Shown in pieces: positions 38,322 to 46,692 of a DNA stretch of 46,692 nucleotides. The stretch comes from Paramecium tetraurelia (taxonomy: Eukaryota). Numbering within the stretch: position 1 is the stretch's first letter; each line of letters begins with the position of its first letter. The stretch lies in assembly GCA_000165425.1 (NCBI GenBank), contig CT868074.1, forward strand, positions 558,001 to 604,692. Reading direction: 5' to 3'. A model generated the notes under the pieces. It saw only the letters and a list, made by a program, of their open reading frames with translations, did not search any database and was not told where the DNA came from. Position numbers and translations under genes: made by a program.

Positions 38322-41300
38322 ATGCACTAACACGATTAGAATCAAGGTTCTTTATTCTTATAAATTTAAGCTAACATTAATTTCAATTTGCAATACACGT
38401 TAGAAGATGAACATTATTACTAATTACCAAAGTTGATTGTTGGAAATTTTAAAGGTAAAAGAACTCACAATAATGTAAACATTGTTTTATCCTTTTAGTA
38501 TAAGCAGGATATATAGAAGTTAGATGATGATTTAAAGGATATTGCAGAGACAACTGTTCTTAAACTTAAAGACTATGCTAAAGTTTGGGATGTTGACTCT
38601 TATGATCAATAATAAAGATATTACTTCAACATTCCACCAACAAGTTTCTTACATAAAATCAAAGAATTTGAATTACCTAAAAACTTTTAAGCTGTAAGAT
38701 TTTGAATTTAATCATTTAAGTATGAATATAATGCTGTAGCGAAATTATCGGAAAAACAAATTCAATAAATGAAGGAAACTGGAACTTTTGAAGTTCCCTC
38801 GAGATAATTTCCAATTCCATATGTTTGGTAGATTTCATCTTGGGTAATTAAAGGTACAGAATTAGATTTTATCAAAGGAATTTAAAACATTGAAACTTCA
38901 AAATATTTGGATCTTGCTAGAGCATATAAAGCATACAGAACTTGGCTAGCCTATATTGCTTAGGATAGAGATGATCTTGGAAGAAATATATCACTTCGAT
39001 CCGCTATATATAATATAGGCATTGTAATTATTCTTATATATTCATAGAGACCATTAGTGATATTTTCTATATTTTTTGGATTTAAAGAGATGTATTCTTA
39101 CGTAGATGAACAAAAATTATTAGCTCTGATTGAAACATAAAGATAGTTTGAATTGAAGTAATTACAGAATGTCAATGTTGAATTATATAAATATTTAAAA
39201 CTGAACCCTTATGATAAGGAAAATTTACTAGCCAAATAAAAATATGAAGACTTATAATAATGTTAAAACGAATTTGAAATTGAAAGAAATGGAATCAGGT
39301 TGCAAATGCAAAGCATATATGATATTCAAATAGAAAAGAAAACTTTACTACAAGCTGAAGATGAAGAGATTGTGGAGTAACACTAATATTTACAAGAATA
39401 AATAAATTAATTGTAATGCGATTTTGTGAAAAAATATAATCTATATATAGATAAGAATATTGACATAACAATCTAGATTGAATAAGCAGCATATTCAGCT
39501 CAAAAATAGTTTTGGGAAAAAACAAAATATCCTAAACCTATTGTCTATTAACTTATTTCCTTAGGAGATTGCTTAAGACTTTACGATTATCATTATGAAA
39601 TTTATTAGACAAAATGTAATACAGCAATAAAAACCTTTAAGGAATAGATAAAACAAAAACATAAAATAAAATCCAATTTCCCAAAATTTGTAGAGGAAGA
39701 AACTCGAAAATTCAAGAAGGATGTGAAAAAATAACTCAAATAATAATTTGTGTCAAATTTTATAGCAGATATGAAATAATTAAATTTGTCTGAATAATAG
39801 GTTTATGAGTAATTTTAATAATGCAAAAAATAGATGAGGGAAAATTTTAAGCAAATGAGAAGTCAAAAGAAAATAGAAAATAAAGAGCCTTCGATTAAAA
39901 TTGTTGTGTATCAATTTCATTTTAAATTAGCTAAAAACGATTATTTCCTCCATATGAAGTTTATTAAGAAAGAGATAGATATTATTTGAGAAGATTTAAA
40001 GATTACCATATTGATTCTTCCAAAGCTGGCTGGAAGCTTAAATTAATAGGGATAAGATATTATGTTTGGACAGTTAACATTATATTTTGGTTAAGTGCAA
40101 ATGCTGTTTCTGGGCCTATCGGAATTAAGGCTTTGATAAAATCGGAAAAATTTAAACCAGATGTTGTAATAGATTCAACAACAGGTAAAGTCAAGCCTTC
40201 AAATTTTACTGTTACACCCTTGATAGTAAAGTTTTTTTCTGTATTAGAAGGAATGAGAAACTCCAGATGTCACTTTGAAGGTAGTCCTGATACTGGTTTG
40301 TTTGGAAAAAATTTATATAGGGTTTTTAACTTAATAGAAGTCTATATATTTAGATTTTTATTAGTTGGCGTTATTGGAGTTATAATTATTTTACCAACTA
40401 TTATTATATCTAATGTGGTAATATCTACTTTATTGGCATTAACTGCTTGGCTTTGGATACCTATAACCATAATTATTAGAATCCTGTTTAATTCATTAAT
40501 TTACGATACAGATGTATGTCGAAGAAGAGAAAAAGATATTATTTGGAGATCTCCAAATTGGTTTCCATTAATCATCAATATTTTTGATTTTTTAATTTTA
40601 GGAATTTTAAACACAATTTATTGCTTATTTAAATTGCTAATATGGCATCCCTTTTGGATAACATTTATGGCCGCATTTGCTTATCTTAGATTTTACACAA
40701 GATCGCTCTATGATTCATTTACTATTATTATTATCAAACTAATGGGTAGAGTTCCATCCTCAGAAAACAACATAGCTTGGAAAATCTCTGGGCCTGGATT
40801 ATCAAGATAATATTTTTACGGAGTATTTAAAATTTTTAAATAAGATCTAATTACCTTAAGTATTGATTTTAGTTCAAGCAGAGTTAGAGAAAAAGATGCT
40901 AAATCTCTACAAACAAAATTTAATAAATCTAATCAACAGACCATCATAAGATCTAAGGTAAAAAATTAACCCTTTTTTCTAATTATTTAATGTAAAAAAA
41001 TATCGAATTCATCTAGGCATAATTTTCTTTTGATGATCCAGCTTGCGGATATTTGACCAATTAATTAAATAAATAAATAGAGGAAAGATTAAGCCTATTT
41101 CCAAAGCTGAATCATTAAATTAGGTTTTCTGAAGATGAATTAAAGTACATTTTAAAATAGGTTAAATCTTTTGTTGAAAAAGTAAATAATTTTAAAGGAT
41201 ATGAAATCTTACATTTGGGATTCTTATCAGGTTTAGAAAGGGGACTATAATTTATTAAGTGAAAAGATTATGGCTGCAATATTTGGTTCTGCTGTTCTTG

Positions 41301-42783: not shown

Positions 42784-43764
42784 TCAAGCTAATTTACTAA
42801 TATCATTCATTACTTCATCCCAAGCATTTCCAAATTAGAATCCTTTTTAATATATCATATCTTAAGCTACTTAATCCCTTGCTTATACTAAATCCTACTT
42901 AGTTATATTCTACATTCCTTTAGATTTTAATAAGGATAATAATGAATTATCCTAATTTAAACTTGCCATTTCTTACAAATCCATCATATCTTAAAACCTA
43001 TTTTTATAATATTCCACGGTTGATTTCAAAGATTTATTGTCTTCATTAAAACTATGATTCTAAACCTTTAGTTTATGCACTTCCTCTTGCAATTTATCAA
43101 TCATTTTCATATAATTTTCTTTTAGAAATCGAAATTCATTAATGTACATCTCCTTCTCTTTATCTAAAGTTTGCTTTACTATTTCAAATTTCTCGCATTC
43201 CTATTAAAAAATTTACTTTTAGGATTCTAAAATTTTAATTTAATTTGTAAATTAAGCTATTTTTACACTTGTTTCCACCTCATTTTGTTATTTTAATTAT
43301 AATTATGCTTCTAACTGAACTATCCTACTTATGAATTGTTCATTAACTAATTTTATCTATTCCTTCAATGCAATTTCCTATTAACTAATTAATTATTCAT
43401 TTTTTTATTATATCTATAAATATTCAATTTTTAATTTCTAATTTTCATTATTTAAGATTTTAATCTACTCTTCATAGAAAATATTTTATTTTTTAAGATT
43501 TTCCAATTATGCCTTTTTAGCTTCATTTTAAGAGATTTCCATTTACAGTTTATTTTCTCTCTCCTATAGAGAATATAACCATTGCAAATTTTTTTCATCC
43601 ATTTCTTTTTTTTTTATATCAATGTTCATTTTGTCTATTGAGTAATTCAACGAATTTAGTTGCTTCTTTTATTATTCGAAATTATTATTAATGCTGCTAA
43701 GATTACTCAACAGTGGTCCAATCTTCTCATACAAATCATAATTTCTTTAACTGTCTGTGCTCAT
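42784..43764 (-). CDS. Coiled-coil hypothetical protein (326 aa)
   Basis: 981-nt ATG..TGA span in code 6, Q/E/K-rich, ending FGNAWDEVMNDISKLA. Confidence 0.65.
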
Positions 43765-45401
43765 AAAAATTAACTTAATAAAAATATTGAAAATTCAAAT
43801 AATCAATACTCCTTTCCACGAAAATGTGATATAAAAATAAAGTTCAGATCTTACAATTTCGTGGGTAGTCCAAATTTTGCTACTAAACAGCGCCTTGCTA
43901 ATCATCTGAGAGTTTAGCAAAAGATGATAATCAATAAAACCAAATAAGAATCCAAGAGCATAGTCATTCTGAATAATTTAAGGCTAATTCTACATTAAAA
44001 AAGTAATCCGACTCAATTTTGAATGATAATATTCCAATACATAAACCATTAACTTGGAAGATAATATATTACTACTAATATTTGGAGTCAAATTGCTAGT
44101 AGAATATGAGAAAGAGTTACTTCATTTGATTATTATATTCTAGCAAAGTGATTATTAATGAAAATCTCGCACCAACTTAACTGTACTATTGATTACTCCT
44201 CTTTTGAAAAATTCCCATATTATATAGGTCAAAATTAATGGTTTCTTTATGCTCTTTAATTGTAGACAGTGGAGGTACACTATGTATCTTTTAATTACCA
44301 AAAGTCAAGTGAGCTTACTTAATCAATTATAAAATTATTTGAGACTCTCAAACATTACTTCAATCTCAAGTTGCACTCTTTAAGGAGACTAAATAATAGT
44401 AATAGTACAACTTTAGACAGCACTCCACTGTGTGTTTAGAGTATGTTTTATGACGATGACTACTTTGTTGATGTACGTTATCATTGTCTAATGAGTCTAG
44501 CAATTTTATCAAAACATCTCACACAATAGCTTTAGCAAATATTCCATTTTAATTTTTCACCTATAAAGTACCTATCGCTGATTTATATTGTTTGAGTAAT
44601 TTAAACTTGAAATTATACATGAAATACATACATTTAGATTTCAGATGAAAACATCCTCAAAACAAATGGTAATTTAGAAATTATTTATAGGAGTAAGAGC
44701 GTCCACACATTTGCAATATTCAGTTTCTAAAACGAAACATTTAAGCGAAGAAGTTTAAAACTAGTAGAATTCATGATGCATGGTATAGAGGAGCGTTAAA
44801 CAGGTGTAAAAGGTTTGATCTTCTCATTTAAATTTGAATGGTTTTTTGACCTTTTTTTTGATGGATATAGCACTTGAGTGCTTTACACTTGGTTGCATAT
44901 AATTTATTGTTAGAGGAAGACAATAAAATACAAGTTTTTAAGATAATTTCTCAGACAATTATTCATGTATACATTAAAAAATAGAGGGGACATTGGAGAG
45001 CATTAGGGGACTCCATTTTTAGAATGAAATTTTCTTACATATTGTTTGGATGTATAATATTTTATTGTGTATTGCTTGTAAAAATCTTAGCACAAATATT
45101 AATGCTTACATAAAATCGATAGCATAAACAAAAATGCATAAATACAAATTTGACAATATACATATATTTTTTCATTATATTAAAAATCCTTCATTAGAGA
45201 TAATTATCTTAAAATAAGTTTTATTATTAAACATGTTAAATATTTATCTTTAACTAATTTTCTAAATTAACATATTACCCTGCGTAAAAATTATTATTCT
45301 ATGCAATCACTTTTTATTTTCGTTTATATATATTCTGTTGATTGTGTGGATATTTTACGATTTTTAGATTGATTATAAATTACTTATTTGATATATTAAT
45401 T

Positions 45402-46443
45402 ATGGAATTATTTAAGGTTTCCAAAATCTAGAGTCAAATCAATAAAGAACTTTAGGTTTAAAGTATAGTTTTTTTAATTATGGAACTTACAAACTAATCA
45501 GGAATAATTTAGATAGAGAAGATCAAAAGAATTATATCAATTGCAAGCATATTGTAAAAGTAAAAAAAAAAAAAAAAGTGGGTTTTAATCAAAGAGTAAT
45601 ATTCTAATTAATTATAGTGAGTCAACAAAATAATTAAAGGAATTTAGAATAAGGAAGATTAAAAAATCATTGGAGACAAAGATAAATATTGTTTAGGTAA
45701 GTTAAGATTCAACATTAAAGAAAAACTTAAATGATTCTATATATGAGTCCTTCAAAGGTGTAATTAATGAAATTATTTGTTTTAGATAATACTCTAAATA
45801 AAATGGAGAGATTTGAAGAAGCTTTGGTGGATTATGATTTAGCAATTTTGAAAAATCCAGAAAATTCTCTATATTTTTTTAACAAAGGTATAATAATATT
45901 GATTATTTCTTTAGCTGGTACTCTAGATAAAATGTATAGATATGAGGAAGCTTTGGACAATTATGATTTAGCAATTTTGAAAAATCCAGAAAATTCTCTA
46001 TATTATTTTAACAAAGGTATAATACATATTGATTATTTCTTTAGCTGGTACTTTAGATAAAATGAAAAGATATGAGGAAGCTTTGAAAAATTATGATTTA
46101 GCAATTTTGAAAAATCCAGAAAATTCTCTATATTATTTTAACAAAGGTATAATACATATTGATTATTTCTTTAGCTGGTACTTTAGATAAAATGAAAAGA
46201 TATGAGGAAGCTTTGAAAAATTATGATTTAGCAATTTTGAAAAATCCAGAAAATTCTATATATTATTTTAACAAAGGTATAATAAATATTGATTATTTCT
46301 TTAGCTGGTACTTTAGATAAAATGATGAGATTTGAAGATGCTTTGAAAAATTATGATTTAGCTAGAGAAAAAAGCTTAGGTATTTCTGACTATTAGAATG
46401 GTAAAGGTAAGCTATCATTTAAAGACAAGCCAATTAAAAATGA
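45402..46443 (+). CDS. TPR-repeat protein with one TPR per 102-nt exon
   Basis: In-frame ATGs at 45402 and 45480. Introns at 45596-45617, 45758-45785, 45888-45914, 46017-46044, 46147-46174, 46277-46304 and probably 46407-46429. The unit AGTLDKMKRYEEALKNYDLAILKNPENSLYYFNK fits the TPR consensus (A8, Y17, A20, Y24, A27, P32). The 3' end is uncertain. Confidence 0.8.
45786..46406 (+). repeat. Tandem array of 129-130-nt exon+intron units (5 exons)
   Basis: Exons at 45786-45887, 45915-46016, 46045-46146, 46175-46276 and 46305-46406 are each exactly 102 nt. They are separated by near-identical introns of consensus GTATAATA(C/A/-)ATATTGATTATTTCTTTAG. Confidence 0.95.
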
Positions 46444-46692
46444 TTATCAAAATAATTGACAAATTTTAATTATTCTTAAAAATTATACTAAATAAATGAA
46501 AGAAATTTAGAAGATTTAGAAATCCTAATAGAGAAATTTATTTGAAATTTATATACACTATATAAAACATAAAACTTGGAGTATGATTTGATAATTGCAT
46601 CCATATGTCCGGTTTGGTTTTTGCAATCACACAAAAATAGCCCCCTTAAACCATGACCGAGAAGGCAAAAAATCCCCGACAGCGAATTCCGT

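Follow-up and report, generated by a model that had tools for sequence, protein, structure and literature searches.

A probable small tetratricopeptide-repeat gene of Paramecium tetraurelia with a tandemly repeated 130-bp module of one exon and one tiny intron

We analyzed a 46,692-nucleotide stretch of the Paramecium tetraurelia genome (assembly GCA_000165425.1, contig CT868074.1, positions 558,001 to 604,692 of the forward strand). We call this whole stretch the window, and all coordinates below count from its first letter. Close to its end, on the + strand, lies what is very probably a small gene of about 272 to 298 codons for a protein built of tetratricopeptide repeats (TPRs), in which a 130-bp module, comprising one TPR-encoding exon and one tiny intron, has been duplicated in tandem; in this TPR family, the position of the intron would be ancestral. 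The latest duplication or homogenization is recent: two neighboring units differ at just 1 of 130 nucleotides. The locus is a case of ordinary repeat-protein growth by tandem duplication, which is a kind of event that is already known.

Tandem Repeats Finder reported one array, at 45790-46362, with a period of 130, 4.4 copies, 95% matches, and a score of 978. A separate repeat search gave five in-register copies, spaced 129, 130, 130, and 130 nt apart. Each repeat unit of 130 nt consists of a 102-nt exon plus a 27- or 28-nt GT..TAG intron. By direct reading, there are four consecutive intron-flanked exons, each exactly 102 nt long and each encoding one TPR: exon 1 (45786..45887), exon 2 (45915..46016), exon 3 (46045..46146), and exon 4 (46175..46276), all on the + strand. 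They are followed on the same strand by a terminal exon of 155 nt (46305..46459, including the stop codon TGA at 46457-46459). The first ~57 nt of this exon are homologous to the unit and encode half of a TPR, and the rest is a unique tail. A first-pass annotation of this DNA, which was made from the letters alone, held that the introns had been copied along with the exons, with one exon per TPR, and the anatomy of the repeat bears this out.

The five introns of the array (all on the + strand) are 28, 27, 28, 28, and 28 nt long. All of them end in TAG and lie in phase 1; four begin with GTA and one begins with GTG. These lengths fit the range of 20-34 nt that includes more than 95% of Paramecium introns, and a GTA..TAG consensus is mentioned by the same source (PMC11334263; here and below, published work is cited for those passages of each paper that bear on the point). 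Intron 3 (46017..46044) and intron 4 (46147..46174) have the same sequence; intron 5 (46277..46304) has one substitution relative to them, and intron 2 (45888..45914) is shorter than introns 3 to 5 by a 1-nt deletion. The predicted intron 1 (45758..45785), which is the one with GTG, differs from introns 3 to 5 at 11-12 of its 28 positions. The first-pass statement that the introns differ by at most 1 nt is correct for introns 2 to 5, but not for intron 1.

Every exon is cut behind a codon's first base (AAA G|AT or G|CT) and is therefore phase 1-1. As 130 cannot be divided by 3, protein is encoded by the array only once each intron has been removed; and since all of the boundaries are in phase 1 and the exons are 102 nt (34 codons), any number of units stays in frame. 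The earlier proposal that exons can be added or lost without a frameshift holds by this arithmetic. The spliceosome recognizes each tiny intron on its own, and the frame therefore holds whatever the number of units. A 28-nt intron that is retained leads to a TGA 19 codons downstream. In Paramecium, retained introns with a length not divisible by 3 lead to nonsense-mediated decay (NMD), and the introns favor an arrangement that exposes mis-spliced mRNA to NMD; the 28-nt introns of the array conform to this (PMC11334263). Through the loss of one base, intron 2 has come to belong to the translatable, stop-free introns, a class that is disfavored by selection: its length is a multiple of 3, it contains no in-frame stop codon, and its retention would insert the nine residues GIIILIISL.

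Comparison of whole units gave identities of 99% between units 3 and 4, 95% between units 2 and 3, 84-86% for unit 1, and 70-81% for unit 5. As a baseline, 200 random 130-mers of the window were 58 +/- 3% identical to unit 3. Among the exons, there is a single base difference between exons 3 and 4, and there are five between exons 2 and 3 and 12-15 between exon 1 and the others. The first-pass annotation had noted the single difference between exons 3 and 4 and had taken it as a sign of recent amplification or homogenization, and the 99% identity of the whole units agrees with this. The homology between units stops inside the terminal exon, near 46362 (the match to a hidden Markov model [HMM] spans 46307-46363). 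At the other end of the array, we considered whether 45628-45757 might be a decayed sixth unit, but its DNA identity to the units (58-64%) is at the level expected by chance (58 +/- 3%).

The youngest units (3 and 4) are central and the older, diverged units are at the edges, which is the pattern expected from unequal exchange or replication slippage. We infer that the 130-bp module multiplied by one of these processes, acting between adjacent units; unequal recombination of exon-plus-intron modules (or slippage), which was among the mechanisms first suggested for this array, would be its most economical origin. Each new repeat would have inherited the intron at TPR position 8, which would be a trait of the family and not a device that evolved for shuffling.

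Given the ciliate genetic code, the spliced array encodes 34-residue units of the AGTLDKMKRYEEALKNYDLAILKNPENSLYYFNK type. Four of the five exon peptides match Pfam's TPR_1 (E values from 6e-5 to 0.016; for exon 1, E=6.1e-5 at profile positions 9-34). Residue 1 of the exon aligns with profile position 9, so the split codon corresponds to TPR position 8. Both direct reading and the TPR_1 alignment agree with the original observation that every cut falls in this same codon and in phase 1-1. Single exons score 15.5-23.1 bits, which is under the TPR_1 cut-off of 27.8, because they lack profile positions 1-8. An unspliced open reading frame (ORF) of 114 amino acids that covers two units (45731-46072) scores above the cut-offs of TPR_1 (33.2 versus 27.8), TPR_11 (29.1 versus 26.8), TPR_2 (27.5 versus 27), and TPR_17 (26.2 versus 24.4).

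The consensus of the TPR has small or hydrophobic residues at positions 8, 11, 20, 24, 27, and 32. In an alignment of the four exon peptides, L11, A20, Y24, A27, and P32 are kept in all of them, and the split codon at position 8 encodes A in exons 2 to 4 and D in exon 1. The period of 34 residues and the consensus are those of the canonical TPR (PF00515); the sole peculiarity of this locus is its gene structure. The product would be a short TPR solenoid, with four full repeats and a half repeat, that presents a surface for protein-protein interactions. Judging from the fold alone, it may function by binding other proteins.

Sequencing runs in public archives provide evidence about both splicing and transcription. 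Of the 24 runs listed, 20, from 17 studies, contain the stretch or part of it, and 16 contain at least half of the sampled words. Four runs were aligned at a likeness threshold of 90: X13 (DNA), X17 (RNA, by the tool's guess), X20 (RNA-Seq), and X24 (oligo-dT, paired 58-nt reads). At this threshold, 192 of 244 reads from X24 and 63 of 86 contigs from X13 are only 90-95% alike and represent paralogues. Because these are mixed in, depth profiles could not be used and other letters could not be taken as variants; instead, we used exact pieces and loose ends.

The DNA contigs of X13 retain intron 2 (pieces 45896-45985 and 45905-45985, the latter being exact from the 3' part of the intron into exon 2), and both intron 2 and intron 4 are crossed with 0 differences (intron 4 by a contig at 46093-46181). 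One contig of the RNA-like run X17 contains the eight exon-end letters TTTAACAA, then AG, and then exon 2, and intron 2 is absent. The contig joins one exon to another where intron 2 is predicted, in a run whose status as RNA is the tool's guess. Other pieces from X17 likewise break off at the AG, in intron 4 as well as in intron 5. The TPR gene is weakly transcribed from the sense strand. In the stranded reads of X24, the first mate is always on the - strand, so the RNA is from the + strand; the depth is 0.7-5 across the unique 5' part (45441-45722) and about 0 after 46430-46474, near the TGA. Run X20 (share 0.13), which carries a different organism label, contains exact 54- and 57-nt contigs from exon 3 and says nothing about the structure of the array in that relative.

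The same runs bear on the length of the last exon. The first-pass annotation counted five consecutive exons of 102 nt, and four of these, bounded by introns on both sides, stand. The fifth (46305-46406) would need an 18-nt GT..AAG intron at 46407-46424, but this stretch is unspliced in an X17 contig that covers 46328-46520 with 0 differences, and a contig from X20 with 3 differences likewise crosses it unspliced. Since the 18-nt stretch is unspliced and the frame is open to the TGA, the last exon is 155 nt and not 102 nt.

The intron site is not peculiar to this locus. First, the 63 of 86 contigs from X13 that are 90-95% alike imply that many paralogous units exist in the genome. Two paralogue contigs from X13 run for exactly 20 nt past unit position 82 and then continue with GTAAAAAC.. 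or GTATATTGG.., that is, with GTA, so the exons of the paralogues end at unit position 102. In two other X13 contigs, the 3' end of an intron (..TTTTTTCAG or ..TTTCCTAG) comes directly before the start of the exon. For the paralogue with the ..TTTTTTCAG end, this exon is preceded in contigs from both X17 and X20 by ..AGCAAAG, and the intron of that paralogue is therefore spliced. Thus, the phase-1 intron site is shared by paralogues within the same genome.

Second, other species of Paramecium may share the site as well. With exon 3 as the query, phmmer found 5106 proteins at E<=1e-3. The first 10 matches were looked up: three TPR proteins from P. tetraurelia, two from P. octaurelia, and one from P. 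sonneborni (59-66% identity), along with two cyanobacterial proteins and two metagenome proteins. One further match is from P. bursaria. In four of seven Paramecium relatives (P0130, P0150, P0005, and P0001), a regular-expression scan found TPRs that are spaced 42-43 residues apart, and the same was seen by eye in P0021. In these proteins, an insertion of 8-9 residues lies straight after K-G at position 8 in some of the TPR units and ends in I/L plus A/G. P0130, P0005, P0001, and P0021 are from the P. aurelia complex, and P0150 is from P. bursaria. As judged from these protein sequences, the insertions look like introns of 24-27 nt, ending in TAG, at the phase-1 site, that the annotation left unspliced. 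The P. bursaria protein hints that the position-8 intron predates the aurelia complex.

Metagenomes were also scanned. The 24-nt intron-exon junction had 0 matches. An alignment of the exon peptides matched 11 loci (44-56% identity, 38-58% GC), none of which were ciliate-like, and we did not use them.

Several observations weigh against our reading of the locus as a gene with a spliced array. First, the direct evidence for splicing of the array is one contig from X17, along with dips in depth that cross-mapping from paralogues also gives. Among the listed joints, none with at least three reads shows a plain skip of 27 or 28 nt across an array intron.

Second, the contigs and the 58-nt reads of the public runs break within the repeat, and the number of units (4.4) comes from the sequence of the window alone. 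The true number might be lower or higher if the assembler duplicated or collapsed units 3 and 4, which differ at 1 base in 130, and among the listed contigs none bridges more than one unit. In addition, three 58-nt reads from X24 link a 3' end of the exon-2/3 type (46144/46146) to the start of exon 2 (45913/45915), which implies a junction that is absent from the window: the order in the window predicts exon 1 before exon 2, and in its last 27 nt exon 1 has one base that is different. A strain difference may account for these reads, or else a paralogue or another order of units. However, at least half of the sampled words were present in 16 of the 24 listed runs, and the runs are from 17 studies. 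Exact DNA contigs cover the junction from exon 3 through intron 4 to exon 4 and both sides of the region with the distinguishing base. Also, units 1, 2, and 5 are distinct, and hence they are not collapsed copies. We consider it very unlikely that the copy number is an assembly error.

The three reads also bear on exon skipping, which the first-pass annotation had raised: skipping or reordering of symmetric exons during splicing could yield diverse isoforms. By arithmetic, any 102-nt exon in phase 1-1 could be dropped without changing the frame, and the reads do join the end of one exon-2/3-type unit to the start of exon 2. But these reads go back in the array, which is not a skip, and they are explained either by the single base at which exon 1 differs or by a paralogue. 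Also, skipping one unit would need the excision of 158 nt, as against the 20-34 nt of more than 95% of introns (PMC11334263). Across the transcriptome of P. tetraurelia, no exon skipping was observed, and it was argued that a spliceosome limited to recognizing very short introns precludes it (PMC5663052, Saudemont et al.). Exon skipping is contradicted by these results, and as a source of isoforms from this array it is extremely improbable.

Third, the 5' part of the gene model was deduced from the sequence. The putative first coding exon (45402..45595, + strand) begins at ATG 45402 or at the in-frame ATG 45480 and is open under code 6. A putative 22-nt GTA..TAG intron (45596..45617, + strand) would join its frame to the TPR frame. 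Then comes a non-repeat exon (45618..45757, + strand) just before the array, whose last residues, NDSIYESFK, faintly resemble the end of a TPR unit. With 45596-45617 removed, the putative gene has 298 codons (272 from ATG 45480), including 12 in-frame TAA or TAG codons, and has no internal TGA. The putative first exon contains an uninterrupted run of 16 A's (45562-45577), which is read as lysines; reads around this run (45549-45589) were skipped in the alignment, so the model is read-free there. We also considered a start at ATG 45731 with intron 1 read through, which is in frame for exon 1, but ~290 nt upstream of it are transcribed, and we judged this start to be less likely.

Fourth, the parts of the predicted protein outside of the repeats have no evident relatives. 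The N-terminal pieces (65 and 45 amino acids) and the C-terminal piece (50 amino acids) did not match any Pfam family significantly in a search at E<=1, with chance-level matches at E values of 0.065-0.072, and neither an NB-ARC nor a ROC-COR signaling domain was found joined to the array when these N- and C-terminal pieces were compared to Pfam. Word-index searches of a protein database with the last exon (50 amino acids), exon 3 plus seven intron codons (41 amino acids), and the N-terminal 65 amino acids had 0 matches, which is weak evidence of absence. The TPR gene may be unannotated or mis-modeled in the protein database.

Fifth, the differences among the exons are mostly non-synonymous: there are 7-8 non-synonymous and 1-2 synonymous differences between exon 1 and exons 2 to 4. 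Exons 2 and 3 have two non-synonymous differences and one synonymous difference. All of these numbers are far too small for a test of selection. Together with the translatable 27-nt intron 2, the differences would also be consistent with a gene that is young or decaying: a larger TPR gene would have been partly duplicated in recent times, and the copy, which lies beside a transposon relic, would be transcribed at a low level and would have no conserved function.

There is indeed such a candidate relic nearby. The first-pass annotation described the DNA upstream of the gene as gene poor, and we found no convincing gene at ~43765-45401, but this region does contain a weak match to reverse transcriptase. 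Upstream of the TPR gene by 0.3-0.5 kb, the match (44913..45080, - strand) falls within an ORF at 44484-45194 and contains the motif GVPQCSPMSPLFFNVYMN, which we take to resemble a reverse-transcriptase motif of retroelements without long terminal repeats (non-LTR). Residues 39-94 of the ORF match positions 106-153 of Pfam's RVT_1 with E=3.5e-5 and 24.1 bits (the cut-off is 29.6), and of the nine non-TPR ORFs that were scanned, this is the only one with a match. A sequence search found no relative of this ORF in PDB. By its sequence, 44913-45080 looks like a decayed relic of a non-LTR retroelement.

In favor of a young or decaying gene, then, are this relic and the adjoining 1.6-kb gene-free stretch, the low read depth, the absence of any domain besides the TPRs, and the unique N- and C-terminal pieces that had no match in the word-index searches. 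On the other hand, all 298 codons are open, GT..TAG is kept in all five introns of the array, the TPR consensus residues are kept in all four full units, and the transcription is from the sense strand; and the word-index searches are poor evidence that relatives are lacking. We consider the young or decaying gene to be unlikely, and we prefer the reading of a small TPR gene with a tandemly duplicated module.

A different explanation concerns the whole family and not just this gene. Paramecium might have a large class of TPR genes, active to this day and made up of 102-nt phase-1 exons, of which this locus would be one. Exons might be swapped from one locus to another, whether through ectopic recombination or through gene conversion and perhaps with help from retroelements, so that a family-wide expansion of cassettes would give rise to fast-evolving binding proteins, as a counterpart of the 90-bp exon arrays of Tetrahymena. 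Several of the observations above are consistent with this: the paralogues share the exact exon boundary and many of them (63 of 86 contigs) are 90-95% alike, the inferred intron position recurs in four species of Paramecium, and the reverse-transcriptase relic lies close upstream. In Tetrahymena, elements that resemble long interspersed nuclear elements (LINEs) adjoin the youngest arrays of leucine-rich repeat (LRR) exons (PMC6564038). In Paramecium, TPR genes are among the genes that are most dense in internal eliminated sequences (IESs), and TPR coding exons have these IESs at their 5' end (PMC6771405). Finally, the changes between units of the array concentrate at TPR positions 15 and 22, and each of these is a double-base change.

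However, when the six frames of the window were searched with an HMM of the four exon peptides, no other TPR was found, so there is no second TPR gene within it. A shared exon boundary is equally expected from simple descent, and the substitutions are too few for a test of selection. The reverse-transcriptase match, which does not reach Pfam's cut-off, is one case only, and 0.84% of the DNA that is destined for the macronucleus (MAC) consists of LINE relics in any event (PMC5405496). Overall, exchange of cassettes between loci seems doubtful to us as the explanation for this array. As for the first-pass proposal of a diversification system that produces variable binding proteins, it is unsupported: the gene is weakly expressed, it has no recognizable N-terminal domain, the three word-index searches of the protein database did not find it, and we saw nothing beyond the ordinary evolution of repeats.

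Elsewhere in the window, the neighborhood of the array is ordinary. Among 19 long ORFs, 7 have Pfam matches, namely to P-type ATPase, sulfate permease, EF-hand, adenylate kinase, Lips (two ORFs), and Na/Ca exchanger. The two Lips ORFs, at 38706-41053 on the + strand, overlap in different frames, and both match Pfam's "Lips protein," one at positions 45-414 (E=2.7e-51) and the other at positions 426-726 (E=1.4e-102). They are probably one gene that is split by a mini-intron or by a frameshift. The GC content along the window is 0.21-0.34, which fits Paramecium, as do the 12 in-frame TAA or TAG codons of the TPR gene, its introns of 22-28 nt, and its nearest relatives. The last ~90 bases (46600-46692) are far more GC-rich than their surroundings. 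A DNA contig from X13 is exact over 46333-46691 and extends for 20 letters beyond; because it passes the end of the window, the sequence there is genuine and is not the end of a chromosome. A scan of 43000-46692 against Rfam (E<=0.1) returned CRISPR-DR66 and mir-3473, both far below the gathering score, and we consider these hits to be chance level.

The closest published parallel to the architecture is in another ciliate. Tetrahymena has nearly 50,000 LRR exons of 90 bp, in thousands of genes, and more than 96% of them have phase-2 introns in between; unequal crossing-over of exon/intron units was proposed to explain the arrays, and a LINE-like element is adjacent (Xiong et al. 2019, PMC6564038). 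Like those arrays, this locus is in a ciliate and has at least three exons of equal and exact length, each with one solenoid repeat, in a single intron phase, with the intron copied along with the exon and conserved with it at the nucleotide level (84-99%). In both organisms, the young arrays are repeats at the nucleotide level. A retroelement adjoins them in Tetrahymena; here there is one weak match that may be a reverse-transcriptase relic. The two systems differ in the repeat (LRR versus TPR), the exon length (90 versus 102 nt), the phase (2 versus 1), and the introns, which in young Tetrahymena arrays are ~250 nt and more, as compared to 27-28 nt. They also differ in scale: nearly 50,000 exons there and one array of four exons here. 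The LRR genes of P. tetraurelia lack such a 90-bp peak, and the exon structure of TPR genes is not treated in the passages of that paper that compare the two ciliates (PMC6564038).

The other parallel is in the brown alga Ectocarpus, whose main TPR exons are 126 nt (42 amino acids) and which also has 21 TPR-like exons of 102 nt (34 amino acids) (Zambounis et al. 2012, PMC3341825). In its candidate receptors of the NB-ARC-TPR and ROCO types, as here, one exon is one repeat, and the exons are of equal length and divisible by three, so that they can be gained or lost in frame. In contrast to our locus, in which we found no signaling domain, the repeats of Ectocarpus are attached to an NB-ARC or ROC-COR domain, and exchange of exons between loci was demonstrated along with tests of selection. 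Both of these analogues had been named by the first-pass annotation, correctly, although the introns of Tetrahymena are in phase 2 (PMC6564038, PMC3341825).

A modular, repeat-expanding TPR family is already published for Paramecium itself. About a third of the tandem repeats are in MAC-destined DNA of P. tetraurelia, and TPR repeats are included (Guerin et al. 2017, PMC5405496). IESs that are present in 3-6 copies were ascribed to TPR or WD40 repeats that had expanded (Arnaiz et al. 2012, PMC3464196). The density of IESs is highest in TPR genes, and the legend of Fig. 8E in Vitali et al. 2019 (PMC6771405) describes "TPR coding exons" with IESs at their 5' end. These genes share with our locus the genus, the protein family, the repeated TPR exons, and non-coding inserts that are duplicated along with the TPR repeats. 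The papers differ from our analysis in that they are about IESs and DNA elimination, and their passages on TPR genes do not mention the 102-nt length, the phase-1 intron at position 8, or mini-introns that are amplified with the exons. More broadly, in the passages of the ciliate literature that we located, we found no description of 102-nt, phase-1, position-8 TPR exons or of co-amplified mini-introns, and the nearest was the Fig. 8E legend (PMC6771405); the relevant parts of PMC5014332 and PMC13085455 contain nothing on arrays of 102-nt or one-TPR exons.

It is possible, as a tentative extension of these results, that the locus belongs to a family-wide and still expanding class of Paramecium genes with 102-nt, phase-1, one-TPR exons and introns of ~28 nt, and possibly with IESs in the germline. 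Such a class may be independent of the 90-bp, phase-2 LRR arrays of Tetrahymena but alike in origin, and it might lie preferentially beside retroelement relics in unstable parts of chromosomes. If this is true, then this locus would count among the very young members, seen shortly after a duplication, and tiny introns (and IESs) would multiply mainly as passengers of repeat modules. If there were a peak of 102-nt, phase-1 exons across the TPR genes of Paramecium, the ciliates would have two independent cases, this one and the LRR arrays of Tetrahymena, and the amplification of introns, IESs, and repeats would be linked.

As a single locus, the array does not change any current view. To the published TPR genes of Paramecium, it adds an exact architecture (102 nt, phase 1, position 8) and mini-introns that were amplified together with the exons. 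It shows cleanly, and at a very young stage, how repeats are added to a solenoid protein and how introns increase in number when a duplicated module carries them, in an organism where introns are short enough that each one needs to be recognized separately.

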